A program made the translations under genes and the position numbers. From a virus (Duplodnaviria > Heunggongvirae > Uroviricota > Caudoviricetes): a stretch of 64,000 bases of DNA. The stretch is taken from IMG/VR virus record IMGVR_UViG_3300010370_000025. One strand, 5' to 3'. Positions 45,686 to 58,534 of this stretch are shown piece by piece; positions within the stretch are counted from its first letter, which is position 1, and each line of letters begins with the position of its first letter. The notes beneath the pieces are model-generated. The model made no database searches. It had not been told where the DNA came from and worked only from the letters and a program-made list of their open reading frames with translations.

Positions 45686-46522
45686 ATGTCAAAGATTAAA
45701 ATAGCAGAACTGTTCTATTCACTTCAAGGTGAGGGGCAGTATCTTGGAACTCCAAGCCTCTTTCTTAGAGTGTTTGGATGTAATTTTATGTGCCAGGGGT
45801 TCTCAATGCCTCGTGGTGAGCTCTCTGAAGAGCGTTTATCGATAGATCCAGCAAAATATGAAAAGTATGATAATTTACCTCTAGTACATACTGGATGTGA
45901 TTCATACGCGTCTTGGGATGCTCGTTTTAAGCATCTATCACCAATGCTTACAGTTGAAGCTATTGTTGATAGAATGCAGCAAATACTCCCAGGCGGTAAG
46001 TTTGGACATACTCATCTTATTCTTACTGGTGGTGAGCCTTTGCTTGGATGGCAAAGATCATATCCTGCTTTGTTGCAAGAAATTATTAACCGAGACATGG
46101 ATCTCGGATACATTACTTTTGAAACTAATGGTACGCAAGAGTTAACAGATCAATTGCAAGGTGTTCTTAAACACTTTAATGTTACTTATAGTGTATCATC
46201 TAAATTACCTTCTTCTGGAGAAAAATGGGAAGAAGCAATTAAGCCTGAAATTGTTAACAAATATGTTCGTAATGGTGATCTAACTTACTTTAAATGGGTC
46301 GTGTCAAACGAAGACGATTATAATGATGTCATCAAAGCTATTGATGAGTATAGTAAAGTTATCGATATGACACAAGTGCCTATTTACCTTATGCCTGCAG
46401 GTGGAACTACAAAACATTATGATAATAATGAAAAGTGGGTTGCAGATTTAGCTATGAAACATGGGTGGAGATATAGTCCACGTCTACAAGTTCAACTCTG
46501 GAAAAATGCATGGGGCACATAA
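45686..46522 (+). CDS. queE: 7-carboxy-7-deazaguanine synthase QueE (radical SAM)
   Basis: 'LFYSLQGEG', 'GCNFMCQGF' and 'LTGGEPLL'. Confidence 0.8.
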   Translation: MSKIKIAELFYSLQGEGQYLGTPSLFLRVFGCNFMCQGFSMPRGELSEERLSIDPAKYEKYDNLPLVHTGCDSYASWDARFKHLSPMLTVEAIVDRMQQILPGGKFGHTHLILTGGEPLLGWQRSYPALLQEIINRDMDLGYITFETNGTQELTDQLQGVLKHFNVTYSVSSKLPSSGEKWEEAIKPEIVNKYVRNGDLTYFKWVVSNEDDYNDVIKAIDEYSKVIDMTQVPIYLMPAGGTTKHYDNNEKWVADLAMKHGWRYSPRLQVQLWKNAWGT

Positions 46523-47052
46523 TGAGTAATAATACAGCAGATATAGTTATGCCAAAAGGCAGATTTTACAAATACGTTAGCACTAAAGAATATCATAACG
46601 CATTTCCATGTGCATACAGACAGTGGCGTGCAGACAGTCATTGTAATTTAATTCACGGCTATGCTTTTTCAATGAAATTTTATTTTGGAACAGATCATCT
46701 TGATGCTCGTAATTGGTGTGCAGATTATGGTGGTCTTAAGGAACTTAAGAAAGTACTAGAAGATCAATTTGATCACACTTTACTCGTTGCGCAAGATGAT
46801 CCAGAATTTGAAACATATAAATTGCTTGAAAGTAAAAACTTAGCTAAACTAACAGTACTACCTAAGCTAGGCTGTGAAGGTTTAGCTGATATGCTTTATA
46901 AGTATGTAAACGGGGTTTATATACCTGATATGTGGGGTCCAGGTGAAGCAGAACGTCTATGGTGTTTTAGAGTAGAAGTTCGCGAAACAGTTTCTAATAT
47001 GGCCTACCGTGAAGGCCACCGTGAATGGCATGAGGATCTATTTAATGACTGA
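46522..47052 (+). CDS. queD: 6-carboxy-5,6,7,8-tetrahydropterin synthase QueD
   Basis: PTPS-fold motifs 'CNLIHGYAF' and 'FDHTLL'. TAATG overlap with queE (alternative start 46510). Confidence 0.75.
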   Translation: MSNNTADIVMPKGRFYKYVSTKEYHNAFPCAYRQWRADSHCNLIHGYAFSMKFYFGTDHLDARNWCADYGGLKELKKVLEDQFDHTLLVAQDDPEFETYKLLESKNLAKLTVLPKLGCEGLADMLYKYVNGVYIPDMWGPGEAERLWCFRVEVRETVSNMAYREGHREWHEDLFND

Positions 47053-47812
47053 TAATGATTTTGATGTGATATATGATGAGTCTGGCTTTGTAGTAGGTCA
47101 GGTAAGTAAACCAATCTCTGCATCTAATAAAATTAAGCAAAGGTTACAAGATGCCAATCATCGCTATTATGCCAATGATAACATTAGCAAATTTTTGGAC
47201 GATAATACTCGTCAGCAGCTTATTGACGAAGTAGCAACTAAATTCGATGGTGTGCTTCGTTCACTGTTAATTGACGTTGATAATGATCCAAACTCTAAAG
47301 GTACAGCTAAGCGTCTCGCTAAGATGTATATTAATGAGATTATGAGAGGTAGATATCATGACGAACCAGACGTTACCTCATTTCCAAATGATGGCTCTCA
47401 TGGGACAGACCCTTATAAAGGTATGTTGGTTGTTAGGGCTGAACTTAAGTCTATGTGTAGTCATCACCATCAACCTGTTACTGGTACAGCATATATTGGT
47501 GTCATACCTAATACCCATGTTATTGGTCTCAGTAAGTACATTCGTATTGCGCAGCATTGTGCGCGACGTGGAACGCTACAGGAAGAACTTTGCGGAGACA
47601 TAGCAAAGGCAATTAGCTCTGCTACACAGTCAAAAGATGTAGGTGTGTATATTGAAGCAACTCATGGGTGCTGTGAGAACAGAGGTATTAGCGCGTCTAA
47701 CTCACTTACGCAAACAGCTGTGCTTATGGGTGACTTCCTTACTGATCCTTCAGTAAAGAACGAGTTCTATAGTAATATTAAGTTACAAACAAGTCGCTAT
47801 TCTTGTAACTAA
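47045..47812 (+). CDS. folE: GTP cyclohydrolase I (FolE)
   Basis: 'CSHHHQPV' and 'HVIGLSKYIRIAQHCARRGTLQEEL'. ATG at 47045 (track 47009). Confidence 0.8.
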   Translation: MTDNDFDVIYDESGFVVGQVSKPISASNKIKQRLQDANHRYYANDNISKFLDDNTRQQLIDEVATKFDGVLRSLLIDVDNDPNSKGTAKRLAKMYINEIMRGRYHDEPDVTSFPNDGSHGTDPYKGMLVVRAELKSMCSHHHQPVTGTAYIGVIPNTHVIGLSKYIRIAQHCARRGTLQEELCGDIAKAISSATQSKDVGVYIEATHGCCENRGISASNSLTQTAVLMGDFLTDPSVKNEFYSNIKLQTSRYSCN

Positions 47813-48116: not shown

Positions 48117-48551
48117 ATGACGTGGTATAAGAATGCTGAAGGTAGACATGGTGCTGCAGGAGCTAAAGGTGATGCAGGTGAAGAACTTGTCAAACATTAT
48201 CTAGAAGAAAGTAATATCAATTACGAGCATAAGACTGATATTGACAGTCAAGTTAATAAAAAGATTGACTTCATTGTAGAAGGTACTACAATGGATGTTA
48301 AGACTAATGCATACAAAGATTTTCTTGCAGTAGAAATTGCTACATCAAAAGGTAAACCAGGGTGGCTTTATACTTCTACTGCAGAAGAGATTTACGGTGT
48401 AGATTTAGAAAAAGAAGAGATATACAGATATCTACGTGAAGAGATGATTCAGTATGCAGCAGATAATGCGCATCGATTTAAAGTAACAAAAAATAATTCA
48501 GTACTACTTTGGGTACATAAAGATAATAAAATGATTGAGAGATTGCAATGA
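48117..48551 (+). CDS. Hypothetical protein (possible PD-(D/E)xK nuclease fold: 'IDFIVEG...MDVKT')
   Basis: Weak motif resemblance only. Confidence 0.3.
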   Translation: MTWYKNAEGRHGAAGAKGDAGEELVKHYLEESNINYEHKTDIDSQVNKKIDFIVEGTTMDVKTNAYKDFLAVEIATSKGKPGWLYTSTAEEIYGVDLEKEEIYRYLREEMIQYAADNAHRFKVTKNNSVLLWVHKDNKMIERLQ

Positions 48552-49339
48552 AGATAGCACATGAAGCACCAATAAGCATTTTTCCTCAAGTACAGCGCAT
48601 GACTGATTATGATTATGCGCTTGTTCACTTATTTGAATCTAATATGTTTTACTATCGCATGTTTAAAGATGCAGTTATTAACGGGCGTGAAGTTATTTTA
48701 GATAATTCTATTTTTGAATTGGGATATGCATTTGACGGTGATTCATATCATAATTGGATTTTAACTTTAAGCCCTACTTGGTATATTGTGCCTGATGTAT
48801 TAGAAGATACAAATGGTACTCTTAATAGTCTTAATAAGTGGTTTTCAAAGTTTGATATTCCAAAGCCTATTAAGTCTATTGGAGCTATTCAAGGTACTAC
48901 CTACGATGAAATTGTAGAGTGTTATCAGGGGGTTGAACCTTTTGTAGATAAGGTTGCTATATCATTTGATTTTTCTTATTATATTAAGTCAACAGAATAT
49001 TTAAAGCCTGATAATAAGTATTATGCTTGGATGCTTGGCCGTCAAAAGCTATTGAAAGATTTGCTTAATGATGGTATTATCAATACTAATAAACCCCATC
49101 ACCTTCTTGGGTGCGCATTACCTCAAGAGTTTTTAGCTTATAAAGATTATAAGTGGATTGACTCTGTAGATACTTCTAATCCTATTGTACATGGATTAAA
49201 TGGTATAGCGTATAAACCTAATGGTTTAGATGAAAAGATTTCTACTAAACTTATTGATTATATGACTGAGAGTGTTACTGATACTCAACTAGAATTTATT
49301 AAAGGTAATATTGAACAGTTTAGAAAGTTTTGTAAGTGA
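48548..49339 (+). CDS. tRNA-guanine-transglycosylase-fold protein (DpdA-like 7-deazaguanine DNA transglycosylase candidate)
   Basis: TGT-like motifs 'ILDNSIFELG' (cf. DSGGFQ), 'HLLGCALP' (cf. LMGVGTP) and 'IDSVDTSNP' (cf. GVDMFDCV). It is embedded among que genes. Confidence 0.5.
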   Translation: MKIAHEAPISIFPQVQRMTDYDYALVHLFESNMFYYRMFKDAVINGREVILDNSIFELGYAFDGDSYHNWILTLSPTWYIVPDVLEDTNGTLNSLNKWFSKFDIPKPIKSIGAIQGTTYDEIVECYQGVEPFVDKVAISFDFSYYIKSTEYLKPDNKYYAWMLGRQKLLKDLLNDGIINTNKPHHLLGCALPQEFLAYKDYKWIDSVDTSNPIVHGLNGIAYKPNGLDEKISTKLIDYMTESVTDTQLEFIKGNIEQFRKFCK

Positions 49340-49884
49340 AACCTTGGATTGCGCTCTTTAGTAATACTGGTAGCGAGCTCAAAAGGATCTGCGATCATTT
49401 TGATATATGGCCTACATCTGTAATTACTAATAATTTTAACTCGGATGATTGGCGTCATAATATTCCAGAAGATATTGTGACAATGATGTCACCTAGCGCT
49501 ATTCACGCCGGGTTTAAGCATATGTATAAAAGGCAGTTTGTTACTCTACATGGGTATATGAGAATATTGCCTCCAGAAGCATGTGAAATGCATGATGTAT
49601 ATAACGGGCATCCAGGCGCTATCAATCTTTATCCTGAACTTAAAGGTAAAGATCCTCAAGAGCGAGTGTGGAATGATCTAGGTAAATATGAGTTTATTGG
49701 TTCAGTTGTGCATAAAGTTACTGAAGAGCTTGATGGTGGTGAGATTGTAAGTAAAGTCTTTTGCGAAAACACTTGCACTTCTAAAGAAGAGCTCTATAAT
49801 ACAATTAGAGAAACTTCATTTAGATCATGGAAAAACTTTCTTTCAACTCATTTTGAGAGAGAGCTAGGAGTAAATAATGTCTGA
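49336..49884 (+). CDS. PurN/Fmt-family formyltransferase domain protein (DpdN-like candidate)
   Basis: 'NGHPGAINLYPELKG' and 'SVVHKVTEELDGGEIVSKVF' match the PurN catalytic-loop pattern (H..D). Confidence 0.7.
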   Translation: MKPWIALFSNTGSELKRICDHFDIWPTSVITNNFNSDDWRHNIPEDIVTMMSPSAIHAGFKHMYKRQFVTLHGYMRILPPEACEMHDVYNGHPGAINLYPELKGKDPQERVWNDLGKYEFIGSVVHKVTEELDGGEIVSKVFCENTCTSKEELYNTIRETSFRSWKNFLSTHFERELGVNNV

Positions 49885-50122
49885 CGCAATTAAACCTGAT
49901 CATTATAAAGCAGGTAATGCATTGTATAGCTGTATCGATGTTATTGAAGATCTTTGTAAAGGTACAAAGAACGATACGTTTACAGATTATAATAGATTTC
50001 AAGCTTTTAAGTATATCTGGAGAGCAGGTAATAAAGATCCTGTACTTCAAGATCTTAAGAAAGCAGTTAGATTTTTAGAATTTGCTATTGCATACGAGGA
50101 AAAGAAGAATGGTAAAAATTGA
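49877..50122 (+). CDS. DUF3310-like small protein (paralog 1)
   Basis: Shared motifs with 51059-51472: 'PDHY', 'FKYIWRAGNKDP' and 'DLKKA..FLE'. Confidence 0.45.
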   Translation: MSDAIKPDHYKAGNALYSCIDVIEDLCKGTKNDTFTDYNRFQAFKYIWRAGNKDPVLQDLKKAVRFLEFAIAYEEKKNGKN

Positions 50123-51059
50123 GGATATTGCATCAAAGCATTTAGGTAAAGCTGGCGACGGTTCGGTAGTTAAGCCTTATGTTACACCAGATAATATTGA
50201 CCCTAGTCTTTTAGTAGGCGTTCCTCGTTATCTTAATCGCATTCAGTATGCAATTGATGAAAACAACCTTCCTTTTGAAGGTTTTGATACTTGGAATTGC
50301 TATGAGTTTTCTGCATTAACTGATAATGGATTTCCTGTATGCGGGGTAATTCGTTGTGTATATTCTAGCAGCTCTAAGAATATTGTAGAGTCAAAGTCTC
50401 TCAAGCTTTATATGAACTCTTATAATATGGCAAGGCTTGGTAAAAGTGTTAAAGAGGTGACTGAAAACGCAGTTGCAACTATCCGTAAAGATCTTGTAGA
50501 GGTTCTTGGATTAGCTGATGAAAATGATTTGAATGTTTCATTTTGTGATGATCAAAGCCCTTCATATGAACCTATCAATGAGCCATATAAGTCAGCATTT
50601 GTTAAGCTTGAATATGTTAATGACATTGAAAATATGACGTTTGATCATTATAATGAAGATCCTAAGATTCTTCAAGTTATACCAACTAATAATTCATCGG
50701 TAGAATTTAAATGGAAGTCATCTGTACTTCGCTCTAATTGTAGAGTAACCAATCAACCCGACTGGGGTGATGTTTTTATTTCTATTAAAGGCGATAATAC
50801 AATTACTTCAGAATCTTTACTCCAATACTTAGTATCTATGCGTAAAGAAAATCACTTTCACGAAGAAATTTGTGAATGCATTTATAAGAGATTATATGAT
50901 CTACTTAATCCAGAAGAGTTGTTTGTAGCTTGTCTTTATACACGTAGAGGCGGTATAGATATTAATCCAGCTCGCGCTACTAATAAAGAGGTAGTTATGA
51001 AACATGCTTCTATGCTTTATAATTCATCAATTAATAATATTAAAACTTTGAGGCAATAA
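50109..51059 (+). CDS. queF: NADPH-dependent 7-cyano-7-deazaguanine reductase QueF (two-domain type)
   Basis: QueF signature 'ESKSLKLYMNSY'. ATG at 50109 (track 50082). Confidence 0.7.
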   Translation: MVKIEDIASKHLGKAGDGSVVKPYVTPDNIDPSLLVGVPRYLNRIQYAIDENNLPFEGFDTWNCYEFSALTDNGFPVCGVIRCVYSSSSKNIVESKSLKLYMNSYNMARLGKSVKEVTENAVATIRKDLVEVLGLADENDLNVSFCDDQSPSYEPINEPYKSAFVKLEYVNDIENMTFDHYNEDPKILQVIPTNNSSVEFKWKSSVLRSNCRVTNQPDWGDVFISIKGDNTITSESLLQYLVSMRKENHFHEEICECIYKRLYDLLNPEELFVACLYTRRGGIDINPARATNKEVVMKHASMLYNSSINNIKTLRQ

Positions 51060-51472
51060 TGACAAAAGCTAGTAAGAGTAATATGTTTGAAAAGAGTGCA
51101 GCAGAAGAGCCGTTTTTAGCTACTATGGGTTCAACAGAACCGTTCGGTGCAGTAGGATCTTCTATTAGTGTAGATAATGTTAGCTTTACAATGCAAGAAC
51201 CTGCTTATATATCTACTCAGTACGACGTCAATCAAGAAACAGTAGATCATCCAGATCATTATGGTGGTGCTGATAATCCTTATGAAGCAATTAAGGTTAT
51301 TCGCGCTTGGGACCTTGGATTTAGTCTAGGTAATACAGTAAAATATATTTCACGTGCAGGTAAGAAAGATCCTAATAAGCGTCTTGAAGACTTGCAAAAA
51401 GCACTTTGGTATTTAGAAGAAGAGATTCAGTATGAATTTGCAAAAAGCCTTGGACCACGTTCCGGATACTAA
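51059..51472 (+). CDS. DUF3310-like small protein (paralog 2, with an N-terminal extension)
   Basis: 'PDHYGG', 'VKYISRAGKKDP' and 'DLQKALWYLEEE'. Confidence 0.45.
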   Translation: MTKASKSNMFEKSAAEEPFLATMGSTEPFGAVGSSISVDNVSFTMQEPAYISTQYDVNQETVDHPDHYGGADNPYEAIKVIRAWDLGFSLGNTVKYISRAGKKDPNKRLEDLQKALWYLEEEIQYEFAKSLGPRSGY

Positions 51473-52205
51473 ACATAATGTTGTATCAGTTCTCTCCGGA
51501 GGGCTCGACTCTACTATTATGACTTATATTCTTGTACGTAAGTATGGTGCAAATAGAGTCTTTGCACTTTCATATAACTACGGACAGAAGCAAAAAGTAG
51601 AACTTGAAATGGCAGCTAAGACATGTGAGTATCTTGGCGTAGCACATAAGGTTCTTGATCTAAGCATCCTAGGTGATATTGTTAAGAACGTCTCTGCTAA
51701 CATTGGTGGTAGTGATGTTAATATGCCTACTATTAAGGATGTGCTTGGAGATCCTCAACCTAAGACATACGTACCCTTCCGTAATATGATTCTTAATTCG
51801 TTAGCATTCTCGTTTGCAGAAGCTAATAAAGCAAGTCATGTATTTACTGGATTACAAGTACATGATGAATATGGTTATTGGGATACTACTCAGAAGTTTG
51901 TAGATAGTATGAATGCAGTAGCAGATCAAAATCGTACTCATAAAGTTAAACTAGAAGCGCCTTTTAGTCTTCTTTCTAAGTATGATGAACTTATGATAGC
52001 TAAAGAACTTGGTAATGTTCGTTTAGAATATACTCTTACCTGCTATGATCCAGATGAACAAGGTCGTTCATGCGGTATTTGCCCATCATGCTCTGAACGT
52101 CTTCAAAATTTTATTAAAGCAAATATGAGAGACCCTATTCAATACCAACCAGGTAGAACTGTTGATTGGGATAGGTTTCTTATTAACGGTGGTGTAAGCT
52201 ATTAA
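51432..52205 (+). CDS. queC: 7-cyano-7-deazaguanine synthase QueC
   Basis: PP-loop 'SGGLDS' and a C-terminal zinc motif 'CGICPSCSERL'. Confidence 0.8.
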   Translation: MNLQKALDHVPDTKHNVVSVLSGGLDSTIMTYILVRKYGANRVFALSYNYGQKQKVELEMAAKTCEYLGVAHKVLDLSILGDIVKNVSANIGGSDVNMPTIKDVLGDPQPKTYVPFRNMILNSLAFSFAEANKASHVFTGLQVHDEYGYWDTTQKFVDSMNAVADQNRTHKVKLEAPFSLLSKYDELMIAKELGNVRLEYTLTCYDPDEQGRSCGICPSCSERLQNFIKANMRDPIQYQPGRTVDWDRFLINGGVSY

Positions 52206-52849
52206 TGTGCAGTATATTTGGCAGTTTTAGTACTGAAAAGTTAAAAGAGTTAGCTGAGCTTAATTTATATAGAGGTCAGCACTCTTATTCTTTTTCATAC
52301 TATGATATCCTTAAAAGACAAATCACCTTTATGCAGAAAGATTTAGGTGAATTGCCTATTAATGACATTAATATACCTGAAGGGCATTATGCAATAGCAC
52401 ATATGCAAGCTCCCACTACAGGTAATAAAAGAGCTAACACTATACACCCGGCTACTATAGGCGTGCATAGTCTTTGGCATAATGGTATTATTAAAGATCA
52501 TTGTGTAAAAAATATGTCACGTAATACCGTTTTTATTGAAAATGGTGATTTAGATTATCTTTCTTGGGATACTTATTTAATTCTCCATCAGTATGTTTAT
52601 CAAGGCAATATAAATAATATAGATGGTACATTTTCATGCGTATACTATAGTGAGCGTGATGGATTGAGATTGTTTCGTAATGAGATATCACCGCTTTTTA
52701 TTGATAAAGAGCACAACATATCCTCAACTAAATTTAACGATTCAGAATCGCTAATGCCTAATATTATCTGGCAATTTTTGCCAGGTGAAGGTATAATGTC
52801 AATTGATACCTTTAAAACAGTAGAAAACCCTTATTATTTTGGAATATAA
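52205..52849 (+). CDS. Class-II (Ntn) glutamine amidotransferase-like domain protein, free-standing downstream of queC
   Basis: Begins 'MCSIFG', i.e. a nucleophile Cys right after Met as in AsnB/GATase-II. TAATG overlap with queC. Confidence 0.5.
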   Translation: MCSIFGSFSTEKLKELAELNLYRGQHSYSFSYYDILKRQITFMQKDLGELPINDINIPEGHYAIAHMQAPTTGNKRANTIHPATIGVHSLWHNGIIKDHCVKNMSRNTVFIENGDLDYLSWDTYLILHQYVYQGNINNIDGTFSCVYYSERDGLRLFRNEISPLFIDKEHNISSTKFNDSESLMPNIIWQFLPGEGIMSIDTFKTVENPYYFGI

Positions 52850-52852
52850 TTC

Positions 52853-53362
52853 ATGATGATTCATATTGCATCTAAAGAGACTGGATCTTCTCTTACTAAT
52901 TTAGTTGAAGCAGATATTCAACCTAATGCTGTAGATCTTAGAGTGAGTAAAATTTTCTCTATTAATCAAAATACTTTTGTTATCGGTGAAGATGATGATG
53001 GCAAAGAGACAAAAATTCATCGAGGTTCTACTGAAGTATATCCAGATGAGTACGGCTATTATACTCTTGACCCTGGCTCATATGAAGTAATTATGGAAAA
53101 TATTATTTCAGTGGGAGCTGATGAAGCGGGGTGGGTTATTACTCGTTCTACTCTTAATCGTAATGGTGTATATATTACTAGCGGGTTATATGATTCAGGT
53201 TATAATGGTGTCATGGCTGGCGCACTTCATGTAACTAGAGGTACTGCCCGTATTAAGAAGGGTACTCGAGTAGGGCAATTCCTATTATTTAAGTCTCAAT
53301 CTCTTAAGAAATATGATGGAGATTACGGTATCGGTAAGGCGCATGATCAAAAATATAATTGA
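52853..53362 (+). CDS. dUTPase/dCTP-deaminase-fold protein
   Basis: 'SGLYDSGYNGVMAGALHV' resembles the dUTPase/dCD motif III region. Predicted beta-rich. Confidence 0.45.
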   Translation: MMIHIASKETGSSLTNLVEADIQPNAVDLRVSKIFSINQNTFVIGEDDDGKETKIHRGSTEVYPDEYGYYTLDPGSYEVIMENIISVGADEAGWVITRSTLNRNGVYITSGLYDSGYNGVMAGALHVTRGTARIKKGTRVGQFLLFKSQSLKKYDGDYGIGKAHDQKYN

Positions 53363-53545: not shown

Positions 53546-54403
53546 ATGGAAATTAAAATTGAACTTGAAGAGCTAAGAAAGAAAAAGCTCTTTATTGCTA
53601 CCCCGATGTATGGTGGTGCTTGTACAGGTATGTACACTCGCTCTATGTGTGATTTGACATCGATGCTAGTAAAGTATGGTATTGAAATGCGATCATACTT
53701 CCTATTTAACGAATCACTTATTACTCGTGCACGTAACTATTGCGTGGATGAATTCTTGCGTTCTGACTTTACACATCTTATGTTTATTGACTCAGATATT
53801 GGATTTAATCCTCAAGACGTAATTGCACTTCTTGCATTACAGGACGATGATTCACCGTATGATGTTATCGGTGGACCTTATCCTAAAAAGTGTATTACAT
53901 GGGAAAAGGTAAAGCAAGCTGTCGATAAGGGTGTTGCTGATAAAGATCCTAACGTGCTTGAAGATTTTGTAGGCGACTTCGTATTCAATCCAGTTATTGA
54001 GAATGGTGCTAAGTCTAAGGAAATTCGTCTTGATGAACCTGCAGAGGTTCTTGAGATTGGTACTGGATTTATGATGATTCGTAAGAAGACGTTTGATCAG
54101 TATGCGGCAGCTTATCCAGAAATTATGTATAAGCCTGATCATGTTCGTACTGCTGCGTTTGATGGGTCGCGTGAGATTGGAATGTATTTCCAAGCAGAGA
54201 TTGATCCTGCATCTAAGCGCTATCTATCAGAAGATTATCTCTTCTGTCAAAACGTACGTAAGATGGGCGGTAAGGTATGGATTTGTCCGTGGATGCATAT
54301 GGCGCATTCAGGCTTCTATACATTCAATGGTAAGCTTCCCGCTCTTGCTTCTATTGGTGCATCAGCTACTGCTGATCCAGCGCTATTAAAGAATAAGAAG
54401 TAA
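53546..54403 (+). CDS. GT-A fold glycosyltransferase-like protein ('FIDSDIGF' DxD)
   Basis: DxD plus an upstream 'ESLITRARN' motif. Confidence 0.45.
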   Translation: MEIKIELEELRKKKLFIATPMYGGACTGMYTRSMCDLTSMLVKYGIEMRSYFLFNESLITRARNYCVDEFLRSDFTHLMFIDSDIGFNPQDVIALLALQDDDSPYDVIGGPYPKKCITWEKVKQAVDKGVADKDPNVLEDFVGDFVFNPVIENGAKSKEIRLDEPAEVLEIGTGFMMIRKKTFDQYAAAYPEIMYKPDHVRTAAFDGSREIGMYFQAEIDPASKRYLSEDYLFCQNVRKMGGKVWICPWMHMAHSGFYTFNGKLPALASIGASATADPALLKNKK

Positions 54404-54419
54404 TTAAAGGATATTTGTT

Positions 54420-55097
54420 ATGAAACTTAGTGAACAGACTATTAATATTTTAAAGAACTTTTCAGTTATTAATAATAACTTGCTTGTTAACCCAGGTAAT
54501 ATTCTTACTACTGTTGCCCCGCAATCACGTTCCGTGTACGCTAAAGCAAACGTAGAAGAAACTTTTCCAAAGCAATTTGCTATCTATGAATTGAATAAGT
54601 TTCTTGGTGTAGTATCTCTCTTCAAGGAACCAGAGCTTGAGTTTGGTGATATGTCAGTTAAGATTGTCTCAGGTAGACAATCAGTAAGCTATACATATGC
54701 AGACCCATCTATGGTTATTGCACCAGATCCTAATAAGGATATTAATTTTCCGACAGCAGATATTGAGTTCTCCATTTCTCAAGAAGAACTTCAGCGCGTC
54801 GTAAGGGCTGCAGGTGTTCTTCAGTTGCCGGAAATTGCAGTGACTGGTGATGGTGCGAACATTACCGTCACTGCTACTAATTCAAAGAATCCAACTACTG
54901 ATGTATTCAGTATTGAGGTAGGTGAGACTAATCATACTTTTAATATGTTAATTAAAGCAGAAAATATTATTAAGTTAATTTCTGCTAACTATGAAGTAAA
55001 GATTACATCGCGCGGACTAGCACAATTTAAGTCTAATAATGTAATCTATTATATTGCAACAGAAGCTAATAGCACATTTAATAAGGATGAAAATTAA
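54420..55097 (+). CDS. gp45: Sliding clamp gp45
   Basis: Colinear with T4 gp45 ('MKLS..T..LKNF..IN'). Confidence 0.85.
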   Translation: MKLSEQTINILKNFSVINNNLLVNPGNILTTVAPQSRSVYAKANVEETFPKQFAIYELNKFLGVVSLFKEPELEFGDMSVKIVSGRQSVSYTYADPSMVIAPDPNKDINFPTADIEFSISQEELQRVVRAAGVLQLPEIAVTGDGANITVTATNSKNPTTDVFSIEVGETNHTFNMLIKAENIIKLISANYEVKITSRGLAQFKSNNVIYYIATEANSTFNKDEN

Positions 55098-55690
55098 TGA
55101 ACGTATATATTCTACTTGACAGATCAGGTTCTATGTCAAGTCTTTGGAATGAAGCAATTGGCGCTATTAATGCATACGTAAAAAAGCTTGACAAAAAGAC
55201 CAAGATCTTTTTATCAACTTTTGATAATGAAAGCTATGATGTTCTTCGTAACTCTAGTGTAAAAGAGTGGAAGGATATTGGTGAGAAAGAATCGCATCCT
55301 AGAGGTATGACTCCTCTTTATGATTCTTGTGCACGTATTATGAATCGTGCAATTGAAGATAATAGCGATAAAACTATTCTTGTCGTAATGACAGATGGTT
55401 TTGAGAATTGCTCAAGAGAGCATACTCGTGAACAGATTAAAGCTAAGATTAAAGACTTTGAAAAGAAAAACTGGGAAGTTGTTTTTCTCGGAGCAAACTT
55501 TGATAAGGTAGATTCAGTTGCATCTGATCTCGGGCTAGCGTATAATAAGTTTACAAATATTACTACAAATAACCTTAGATCGTATATGATGGGTAGTCTA
55601 GCTGACGCTACTGTAGCATATACTACTGCAGGTACTGCAGTAAATATTACTGACAAAGATAAGATGTCTGCTACTAAAGCATCAGTCTAA
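55097..55690 (+). CDS. von Willebrand factor A domain protein (MIDAS 'DRSGSM') inserted between gp45 and gp44
   Basis: vWA motifs 'LLDRSGSM', 'T....' and 'VVMTDGFEN'. Confidence 0.7.
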   Translation: MNVYILLDRSGSMSSLWNEAIGAINAYVKKLDKKTKIFLSTFDNESYDVLRNSSVKEWKDIGEKESHPRGMTPLYDSCARIMNRAIEDNSDKTILVVMTDGFENCSREHTREQIKAKIKDFEKKNWEVVFLGANFDKVDSVASDLGLAYNKFTNITTNNLRSYMMGSLADATVAYTTAGTAVNITDKDKMSATKASV

Positions 55691-57463: not shown

Positions 57464-58534
57464 ATGTATAATTATGATGATGTTAGAGTAGTTCATTTAG
57501 AAATTACTCAAAAGTGTCAAGCTTCCTGTCCGATGTGTGACAGAAATCAAAATGGGGGCTTAATCAACCCCCATCTTTCTTTAGCTGAACTCTCCTTAGA
57601 AAATTGTAAGCAAATATTTGAGCCTGCTTTTATTAAGCAGCTTAACTACATGTATATGTGTGGTAATTTAGGTGATCCTATTATTGCTAATGATACTCTA
57701 GAAGTATTTGATTACTTTCGCACACATAACCCTAACATGAAACTAAGCATGAATACCAATGCAGGTGCTAGAAATCAGCAATGGTGGCGAGATCTTGCTA
57801 AAGTATTAGGCCCGAAGGGGATGGTAAGATTCTCTATAGATGGATTAGAAGATACTAATCATATCTACAGAAGAGGTGTTCAATGGGATAATGTAATGAG
57901 CTCTCTTACCAGTTTTATTGATGCTGGAGGTAACGCTATATGGGATTATTTAATATTTGATCATAATGCACATCAAGTAGAAGAAGCAAAAAAATTATCA
58001 GTTAATCTAGGTGTAAAAACTTTTGTAGAAAAGAAAACATCTAGATTCTATAGTACAGCAAAAACATCTCTTAAAGATACTCATACTGTAAAAGATCGTA
58101 AAGGTAACGATCAATATGATCTAAAACCAGTAGATACACCTCTTAATAATAAAATTAATAATACTATAGATAAGCATGGTAGTCTATCTAACTATTATGA
58201 TACAACAGAAATAGTTTGTAAAGTAAAAGAACAAAAAAGTATTTTTATTACTGCTGAAGGTCTAGCAATGCCTTGTTGCTGGACTGCTTCCCGTATGTAT
58301 AAGTGGTGGCATAAAGATCCTAAAGTAGAACAGGTGTGGCAATTTATTAAAGATACAGATAGAATAAACGTTCTTAAACACGGTATTAAAGATGTGCTTA
58401 ATAATGGTGTATTTCAAGATATAGAAGTAAGCTGGGGGCTTCGATCAGTAGCAGAAGGTAAACTGAAAGTATGCTCTGAGAAATGTGGTAAAGAGTTTGA
58501 TCCGTTTAAGGAACAATTTGTTAATGCAAAATAA
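57464..58534 (+). CDS. Radical SAM enzyme with a C-terminal SPASM/twitch-like Cys cluster (rSAM-A)
   Basis: 'ITQKCQASCPMC' (CxxxCxxC), 'CGNLGDP', and a C-terminal 'C-x12-G-x4-CC ... CSEKCGKEF'. Confidence 0.65.
   Translation: MYNYDDVRVVHLEITQKCQASCPMCDRNQNGGLINPHLSLAELSLENCKQIFEPAFIKQLNYMYMCGNLGDPIIANDTLEVFDYFRTHNPNMKLSMNTNAGARNQQWWRDLAKVLGPKGMVRFSIDGLEDTNHIYRRGVQWDNVMSSLTSFIDAGGNAIWDYLIFDHNAHQVEEAKKLSVNLGVKTFVEKKTSRFYSTAKTSLKDTHTVKDRKGNDQYDLKPVDTPLNNKINNTIDKHGSLSNYYDTTEIVCKVKEQKSIFITAEGLAMPCCWTASRMYKWWHKDPKVEQVWQFIKDTDRINVLKHGIKDVLNNGVFQDIEVSWGLRSVAEGKLKVCSEKCGKEFDPFKEQFVNAK

Follow-up and report, generated by a model that had tools for sequence, protein, structure and literature searches.

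A standalone class-II amidotransferase-like protein paired with a divergent phage QueC: a candidate two-gene, glutamine-dependent preQ0 synthase

The synthesis of 7-deazaguanine bases passes through QueC, which converts 7-carboxy-7-deazaguanine (CDG) to 7-amido-7-deazaguanine (ADG) and then to the nitrile 7-cyano-7-deazaguanine (preQ0), with ammonia as nitrogen donor and one ammonia used per preQ0 (PMC13082051). In Crenarchaeota, in phage 9g and in relatives of that phage, a glutaminase-type N-terminal nucleophile (Ntn) domain with a Met-Cys start and the PP-loop ATPase QueC are parts of one polypeptide, Gat-QueC, the glutamine amidotransferase (GATase) domain being N-terminal. Here we analyse a 64,000-nucleotide stretch of a Caudoviricetes genome (IMG/VR virus record IMGVR_UViG_3300010370_000025, the whole of which we call the window), where the same two components, in the same pathway setting next to folE, queD, queE and dpdA, are encoded by two open reading frames (ORFs) with queC first. 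The arrangement described by the first-pass annotation of this DNA, a queC gene followed by a separate class-II Ntn GATase-like ORF with a Met-Cys start and a TAATG overlap, was borne out: the final A of the queC TAA doubles as the first base of the Ntn ATG (gctatTAATGtgc). We propose, at a probability of roughly 0.6, that QueC and the Ntn protein together form a glutamine-dependent preQ0 synthase encoded by two genes, in which Ntn would be the trans-acting glutaminase subunit, supplying QueC with ammonia for the route from CDG through ADG to preQ0. At that level of confidence the proposal draws on fold, active-site residues, synteny, phyletic pairing and the published base compositions of related phages.

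The catalytic nucleophile of class-II GATases, as of Ntn enzymes in general, must be the N-terminal residue, and to our knowledge it is rare for such a glutaminase to be encoded apart from its synthase. Since a free N-terminal cysteine is needed, fusion of an Ntn domain is possible only on the N-terminal side of a synthase, whereas a separate ORF can be placed anywhere. The order found in the window, which the first-pass annotation called reversed, is thus explained by the Ntn domain being a separate ORF, able to sit behind queC.

The association of the two genes is very strong. The loci examined comprise 80 IMG/VR loci fetched with the Ntn protein, four loci from isolated phages and five contigs of metagenome-assembled genomes (MAGs). 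Among the 76 with at least 800 bp upstream of the Ntn gene, queC lies upstream in 75, directly so in 57 and with one ORF between in 18. Stop and start codons overlap in 45 of the 57 directly adjacent pairs, and 34 of these overlaps are of the same 1-nt type as in the window. The reverse test, with 80 loci fetched by QueC, places an Ntn gene downstream in every locus of this QueC clade that offers at least 1400 bp of downstream sequence (73/73), so that the association with QueC is evident from both directions. Isolated phages present the same picture. The Ntn protein finds 52 records by tblastn (49 Vibrio phages, two records of Pseudomonas phage pf16 and one unclassified Caudoviricetes), the Vibrio phages including KVP40, nt-1, VH7D, phi-pp2, ValKK3, phi-Grn1 and phi-ST2, and queC is annotated beside the match in most of the rows listed. 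The window QueC finds 51 isolated-phage records at E<=1e-30, with 51-66% identity and from the same kinds of phages, whereas the remaining QueC proteins of phages, from about 280 records, have at most 34% identity to it and are absent from the Ntn matches. Relative to the window proteins, identity averages 72% for QueC and 51% for Ntn, and the two values track each other (r = 0.75). Strict one-to-one pairing together with overlapping stop and start codons is what would be expected of subunits of one enzyme.

The ORFs that separate queC from the Ntn gene in 18 loci are HAD-like, GIY-YIG-like (putative homing endonucleases) or membrane proteins of the YhhQ/COG1738 type (examples, as locus and coordinates, are L055:9411-10001, L075:9519-10031, L029:9384-10001 and L003:6476-7105). 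YhhQ/COG1738 is a preQ0/preQ1 transporter family, and a member is also annotated beside queC in Vibrio phage 2.275.O. A third conserved subunit in this position was considered and rejected because the inserted ORFs differ among loci; their varied nature marks them as secondary insertions.

The Ntn ORF is a real gene rather than a chance reading frame, given that 702 homologues, down to about 45% identity, were found in a database of 5.8 billion proteins and that 46 columns are invariant in an alignment of 40 family members. The listed homologues are 176-225 aa long (nearly all 203-225) and all standalone. A library of representatives at 50% identity yields 296 clusters at E<=1e-30, in which the representatives, of about 200-230 aa, nearly all align from residue 1. 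None of the three longer proteins contains QueC; their additional sequence is a low-complexity tail or a DUF3310 domain, the latter in the 349-aa representative P0384, an Ntn-DUF3310 fusion. The family corresponds to PHROGs entry phrog_12378, labelled 'unknown function'. It is restricted to phages and practically absent from cellular genomes, with only five matches in 185,579 species genomes, all on MAG contigs.

With curated models the window Ntn protein gives zero Pfam matches and weak NCBIfam matches only (purF at 1.5e-3, 18 bits versus a cut-off of 350, and GlmS at 8e-3); some homologues carry a precomputed PF13522 assignment, or PF13537 below threshold. The family profile matches the GlmS glutaminase domain in the PDB at 2.7e-4. 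The AlphaFold2 (AF2) model is of high confidence, with a predicted local distance difference test score (pLDDT) of 91.4 and a predicted template modelling score (pTM) of 0.89. Its best Foldseek matches are GlmS structures (1xff/1jxa, E 3e-8, TM 0.66, probability 1.0), then PurF and human GFAT1; EgtC comes lower (E 6e-7) with 7-8% identity to the Ntn protein. Among the viral models of BFVD the matches are assorted phage Gn_AT_II proteins, the Gat-QueC of Pantoea phage Vid5 being ranked 13th. Judged from the model, the Ntn ORF is of the class-II Ntn amidotransferase type, with a predicted four-layer alpha-beta-beta-alpha fold.

Conservation follows the catalytic machinery. A Met-Cys start (ATG-TGY) is found in all 88 related Ntn ORFs considered. 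In the profile alignment to the E. coli GlmS glutaminase domain, C2 corresponds to the nucleophile Cys1, R23-G24 to the conserved pair R26-G27, N93-G94 (in WHNGI) to the oxyanion-hole residues N98-G99 (HNGII), and D122 (WDT) to D123 (DTE), which binds the glutamine alpha-amino group. The invariant Gln68 (HxQAPTT) takes the place of Arg73 of GlmS and PurF, which binds the glutamine alpha-carboxylate. C2, R23-G24, N93-G94 and D122 are conserved in 40 of 40 aligned members; the Asn/Gly oxyanion residues, whose absence the first-pass annotation had named as a sign against its reading, are therefore present and invariant. Further invariant columns are H66-x-Q68-A-P-T-T, H81-P-A, W91-H-N93-G94-I, K97, W121-D122-T123, G141-x-F, F157-R-N, P163, S173-S-T and a C-terminal N208-P-Y.

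The partner is a clear QueC by its Pfam (PF06508, 3.7e-54, 183.9 bits against a cut-off of 22) and TIGR00364 (172 bits against 150.3) matches, and it also has a weak Asn_synthase match (6e-7). Like canonical ammonia-dependent QueC (E. coli; B. subtilis 3BL5), it has the SGGxDS (here SGGLDS), VPxRN (VPFRN) and zinc-cysteine motifs and the essential Tyr and Arg positions; the definitions of the SGGxDS PP-loop and the C(x)8CxxCxxC zinc site are those of PMC13082051. The first spacer of its zinc site, C204-x9-C214-xx-C217-xx-C220 (CYx8CxxCxxC), is one residue longer. Equivalents of all four residues essential in E. coli QueC (Y35, R99, Y131 and Y189; PMC13082051) are present. The window protein retains Y50, Q52, E57, R117, Y149 and D151, and the His of YxQxHxxE is Gln54. 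It differs from canonical QueC in being 29% identical to the E. coli protein and in the changes of YGQRH to YGQKQ and YPDC to YWDT, which hold for the whole partner clade (YxQxHxxE to YGQKQxxE; residues 50-57 and 147-152). The clade also has an extra invariant MPTIKDVLGDPQP loop (…SANIxGxxVxMPTIKDVLGDPQPKTYVPFRN), an N-terminal extension and a C-terminal DPIxY…W extension, besides its constant pairing with the Ntn protein.

The elements invariant in the partner clade, namely loop 83-113, residues 142-148, YWDT and the C-terminal extension, lie around the active site. In the AF2 monomer of the window QueC (pLDDT 80), values drop under 50 in the invariant loop 83-110 and at residues 142-148, and in the Ntn model the invariant C-terminal NPY tail is likewise of low confidence. 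Regions so conserved and yet so poorly modelled are consistent with, and suggestive of, segments that would become ordered on partner binding, as an interface or lid.

How does the pair relate to Gat-QueC? The first-pass annotation saw in it an apparent split Gat-QueC, which in an evolutionary sense the comparisons contradict. The hidden Markov model (HMM) of the Ntn family scores 26 bits with the N-terminal domain of E. coli GlmS, 15.6 with that of PurF and 11 with that of AsnB, and at most 12 bits, mostly about 2, with 23 distinct phage Gat-QueC proteins. Profile-profile scores from hhalign are much the same throughout (38.6 for the Gat(-QueC) profile, and 37.2, 34.2 and 29.3 for single GlmS, PurF and AsnB sequences). 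BLASTP aligns the window Ntn protein with 9g Gat-QueC over the first 16 residues only, identity between the window QueC and the QueC domain of 9g is 26%, and no fusions are found among the best matches, the listed QueC homologues being standalone proteins of about 250 aa. Alignment against Gat-QueC fusions, proposed earlier as a check, thus reveals no specific affinity, and a recent fission of Gat-QueC was rejected since BLASTP gives only that short match and neither HMM nor hhalign prefers Gat-QueC to GlmS or PurF. Judging by these sequence comparisons, the pair is best described as a functional analogue of the Gat and QueC combination and not as a recent split of that fusion. The two systems also differ in that Gat-QueC has Arg at the position of Gln68, and in that Gat-QueC phages make the archaeosine-type deoxynucleoside dG+ and do so without QueF, whereas the pair usually occurs with QueF and its relatives make dPreQ1 and mdPreQ1.

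The GlmS and PurF glutaminase domains provide the best matches in sequence and structure, and the equivalents of Cys1, Arg26-Gly27, Asn98-Gly99 and Asp123 are kept; they differ in being fused to a synthase, in having Arg73 where the family has Gln68, and in an identity of about 18-20%. In chemistry there is a parallel in AsnB, in which a class-II GATase supplies ammonia to a PP-loop ATP pyrophosphatase that adenylates and amidates a carboxylate. The chemistry is that of the first half-reaction of QueC, and we propose an AsnB-like arrangement for the pair. AsnB is, in contrast, a single polypeptide and its reaction ends at the amide, whereas QueC proceeds to the nitrile. A closer kinship of the Ntn protein with asparagine synthetase N-domains, envisaged by the first-pass annotation as a contrary outcome, was not observed: of the three E. 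coli N-terminal domains compared, that of AsnB scores lowest.

Clues on the product come from isolated relatives. Phi-Grn1 and phi-ST2 both have this same queC-Ntn pair together with QueF (tblastn), and their DNA contains dPreQ1 and mdPreQ1 only, with dG+, dADG and dPreQ0 at zero (PMC10516641 Table 1). The QueF of VH7D complements an E. coli queF mutant (PMC10516641) and is therefore a genuine preQ0 reductase. Phage nt-1, in which the pair is accompanied by ArcS2 and no QueF, has dPreQ0 > dADG > dG+ in its DNA (PMC6884629), and its dG+ was reproduced in E. coli by DpdA2 and ArcS2 alone (PMC10516641). Across the loci the pair occurs with QueF in 44 and without it in 13. QueC and Ntn of the QueF-less loci are about 82% and 60% identical, respectively, to the window proteins, and QueF-less loci such as L022 have no other tailoring enzyme near the cluster. 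A pair that is kept with or without QueF, along with the base composition of the relatives, fits an enzyme delivering preQ0. A branch to archaeosine- or amido-type bases, one of the two options raised at first pass, is not supported. As for the other option, glutamine-dependent amination of some other substrate, amination appears the better choice of the two, while the likeliest substrate would be QueC's own CDG.

In the phage of the window, which as annotated at first pass does encode QueF, preQ0 would be processed further. By tblastn the window transglycosylase groups with those of the immuto and CP220 phages, a set that we assign on sequence grounds to the DpdA3 type. Assignment to DpdA2 was rejected on the same grouping. 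The window protein has no similarity to the nt-1 ORF at L004:1125-1958, which is other than the catalogued nt-1 DpdA2; Hutinet 2019 Supplementary Data 1 indicates that the latter is the ORF directly upstream of queC. The only matches of the window formyltransferase in the phage database are the PurN-like genes of the immuto phages (38% identity, 3e-26). The immuto gene has been named DpdN and linked to 7-(formylamino)methyl-7-deazaguanine (fdPreQ1), for which a level of 345,000 per 10^6 nucleotides was measured and no dG peak was seen (PMC10516641). From the combination of DpdA3, DpdN and QueF we predict that the window phage replaces much or all of its G with fdPreQ1. Near-complete replacement would demand that QueC sustain a high flux, for which recourse to glutamine is plausible. 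The immuto phages, however, reach fdPreQ1 with a distant QueC (27%) and without an Ntn partner, so that the partner is not obligatory for fdPreQ1 chemistry.

Under the proposed mechanism, Met1 would be removed and Cys2, as the N-terminal nucleophile, would hydrolyse the amide of glutamine, with Asn93-Gly94 forming the oxyanion hole and Asp122 holding the alpha-amino group. The ammonia released would pass to the partner QueC, which would adenylate CDG, amidate it to ADG and dehydrate ADG to preQ0. QueF would then reduce preQ0 to preQ1, and in the window phage DpdA3 would probably insert the preQ1 once the DpdN-like enzyme has formylated it. The design would be that of AsnB, a class-II GATase with a PP-loop ATP pyrophosphatase, split into two translationally coupled genes. 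Fold, active-site residues, near-obligate synteny with co-occurrence, and independence from QueF are shown by the analysis, whereas we infer that glutamine is the substrate, that the two proteins associate physically and channel ammonia, and that preQ0 is the product.

Several points weigh against this proposal. Bacterial QueC uses free ammonia, and a glutaminase is not chemically required. The window Ntn protein reaches no curated family threshold (Pfam GATase_2/4/6/7, NCBIfam). The chief caveat is that Gln68 is invariant where GlmS and PurF carry Arg73 and where phage Gat-QueC retains Arg (RAEPTT); an Arg binding the alpha-carboxylate is found in every characterised class-II amidotransferase known to us, and the substitution may mean that glutamine binding is weakened or that another amide donor is used. 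Standalone class-II-like proteins such as EgtC, itself among the fold matches, are hydrolases and not ammonia donors. No natural QueC-Ntn fusion, which would have proved a functional unit, occurs among the best 120 QueC matches or the best 150 Ntn representatives, one contig (L114) has the Ntn gene 5 kb away from queC, and in one locus (L080) queC is missing from the 732 bp that precede the Ntn gene on the contig.

The standalone condition and the fold match would suit an amidohydrolase like EgtC, cleaving an amide or gamma-glutamyl bond on another molecule (a deazaguanine intermediate or a conjugate) and linked to QueC through the pathway only. EgtC and YafJ are indeed single-domain proteins whose nucleophile is an N-terminal Cys and whose length is about 210-230 aa, and the change from Arg73 to Gln suggests a ligand bound unlike free glutamine. 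EgtC, however, frees glutamate from a gamma-glutamyl conjugate and feeds no synthase. Its low identity to the Ntn protein is surpassed by the better scores of the GlmS and PurF glutaminase domains, and the Ntn family lacks any ergothioneine-gene context or sequence link, its neighbours in the window being 7-deazaguanine genes. The alpha-amino binder Asp122 is invariant, and the strict pairing with a single QueC clade and the overlapping codons are as they should be for two subunits of a single enzyme. We also know of no 7-deazaguanine intermediate that carries a gamma-glutamyl group. Such a hydrolase is an unlikely, though not negligible, explanation. The same invariant Gln in place of the carboxylate-binding Arg prompts a further possibility, that the Ntn protein is no plain glutaminase and uses another amide donor or, together with the remodelled QueC pocket (YGQKQ, YWDT), transfers nitrogen or an acyl-type group by a novel route to give an undescribed 7-deazaguanine derivative. 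We hold this to be quite unlikely; if true, it would matter most in the QueF-less phages.

A functionally split Gat-QueC, in which the pair turns preQ0 (free or in DNA) into G+ or leaves ADG, so that dG+ or dADG stands beside preQ1-type bases, would find some ground in phage 9g, where Gat-QueC in place of QueC gives dG+ (PMC6884629), and in nt-1, which carries the pair and contains some dADG and dG+ (PMC6884629), as well as in the QueF-less loci devoid of another tailoring enzyme. The zero values of phi-Grn1 and phi-ST2 argue against it, as does the origin of dG+ in the nt-1 system from DpdA2 and ArcS2 without the Ntn gene. Moreover, QueF, which 44 of 57 loci encode, needs the nitrile, the QueC and Ntn proteins of QueF-less loci are so similar to those of the window that they are unlikely to make a different product, and neither part of Gat-QueC shows specific similarity to the pair. 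We regard this as improbable, and a role in forming G+ or ADG, itself improbable, would concern mainly the QueF-less members. The failure of the window Ntn protein to reach curated thresholds might finally be taken to mean that it has no catalytic part in nitrogen supply, being instead a partner with a structural or regulatory function for QueC, or the product of an unrelated gene that travels with queC. Yet members with as little as about 33% identity still have Cys2, Asn-Gly and Asp122 unchanged, which is hard to explain without catalysis, and the synteny outlasts insertions of unrelated ORFs; this seems very improbable. A glutaminase subunit working in trans with QueC thus remains our favoured explanation of the pair.

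Within an incomplete coverage of the literature, we found no description of the Ntn partner in the 2019 and 2023 papers on phage 7-deazaguanines (de Crécy-Lagard and Hutinet groups), nor in a 2026 survey of the QueC family, the pf16 genome paper or a full-text literature search. Hutinet 2019 Supplementary Data 1 lists DpdA2, FolE, QueD, QueE, QueC and QueF or ArcS for KVP40, VH7D, nt-1 and pf16, and accession searches of that table did not find the Ntn ORF. The gene is hence absent from the pathway maps and catalogues checked, though conserved in KVP40, nt-1, VH7D, phi-Grn1/ST2 and pf16, and the queC-Ntn pair is conserved in hundreds of phages, mostly environmental. Should QueC of this clade need its partner, reconstitution with phage queC alone may fail or mislead. 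An Ntn subunit acting in trans with a nitrile-forming PP-loop enzyme would, if confirmed, be an unusual arrangement, and a glutamine-dependent enzyme converting a carboxylate to a nitrile would be of biocatalytic interest. The pair is also a hint that heavy hypermodification of DNA can be constrained by the supply of nitrogen.

The genes of the cluster are listed in table 1.

Table 1. Position and supporting evidence of the 7-deazaguanine genes of the window and of the ORFs among and beside them.
Feature	Coordinates	Strand	Evidence
queE-like radical SAM (CDG synthase)	45686..46522	+	weak radical-SAM Pfam matches; kept with cluster in related loci
queD (6-carboxy-tetrahydropterin synthase, PTPS family)	46510..47052	+	PF01242 1.3e-14
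folE, GTP cyclohydrolase I	47009..47812	+	PF01227 8.5e-40
DpdA3-type DNA guanine transglycosylase (assigned)	48548..49339	+	no Pfam match; tblastn
DpdN-like (PurN-like) formyltransferase, predicted preQ1/dPreQ1 formylase	49336..49884	+	PF00551 2.1e-9
queF, bimodular NADPH-dependent preQ0 reductase	50082..51059	+	QueF_N 2.8e-28, QueF 4.7e-23, TIGR03138 4.6e-67
DUF3310 (SaV-like) ORF between queF and queC	51059..51472	+	PF11753 2.8e-13
queC, preQ0 synthase, divergent phage-specific clade, 257 aa	51432..52205	+	Pfam, TIGR00364
Standalone class-II (Ntn) glutamine-amidotransferase-like ORF, 214 aa, MCSIFG start	52205..52849	+	profile, AF2, Foldseek
TAATG stop/start overlap of queC and Ntn ORF (translational coupling)	52203..52207	+	read from sequence
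dCTP-deaminase/dUTPase-like gene	52853..53362	+	PF22769 8.2e-14

The true start of queF is probably the ATG at 50109, and its translation contains the ESKSLKLY motif and the catalytic Cys in CRVTNQPDW. The gene is flanked by two small DUF3310 (SaV-like) ORFs, one at 49877-50122 and the other the ORF between queF and queC, which overlaps the queC start by 41 nt and in many related loci immediately precedes queC; PHROGs labels families related to these ORFs 'nucleotide kinase'. In most related loci, too, the dCTP-deaminase/dUTPase-like gene comes after the Ntn gene, as a rule no more than about 10 bp away, and it may be part of the same conserved block. No terminator-like site was found on the + strand from queF to the gene after the Ntn ORF, the promoter scan gave no excess over the shuffled expectation, and megablast of the region against isolated phages returned zero matches.

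A 144-aa ORF without family assignment (48117-48551) lies directly upstream of the transglycosylase gene, which it overlaps, and occurs at the same position in several related loci with 38-100% identity. Farther downstream are a 285-aa ORF (53546-54403) with a weak Anp1 (glycosyltransferase-like) match and, beyond T4-like clamp and clamp-loader genes, a radical SAM/SPASM-like ORF (57464-58534; CQASCPMC; PF04055 9e-7). Beside the gp45-like sliding clamp (54420-55097) the window encodes a vWA-domain ORF (55097-55690), and in Vibrio phage 2.275.O, too, a vWA gene is located near the queC cluster.

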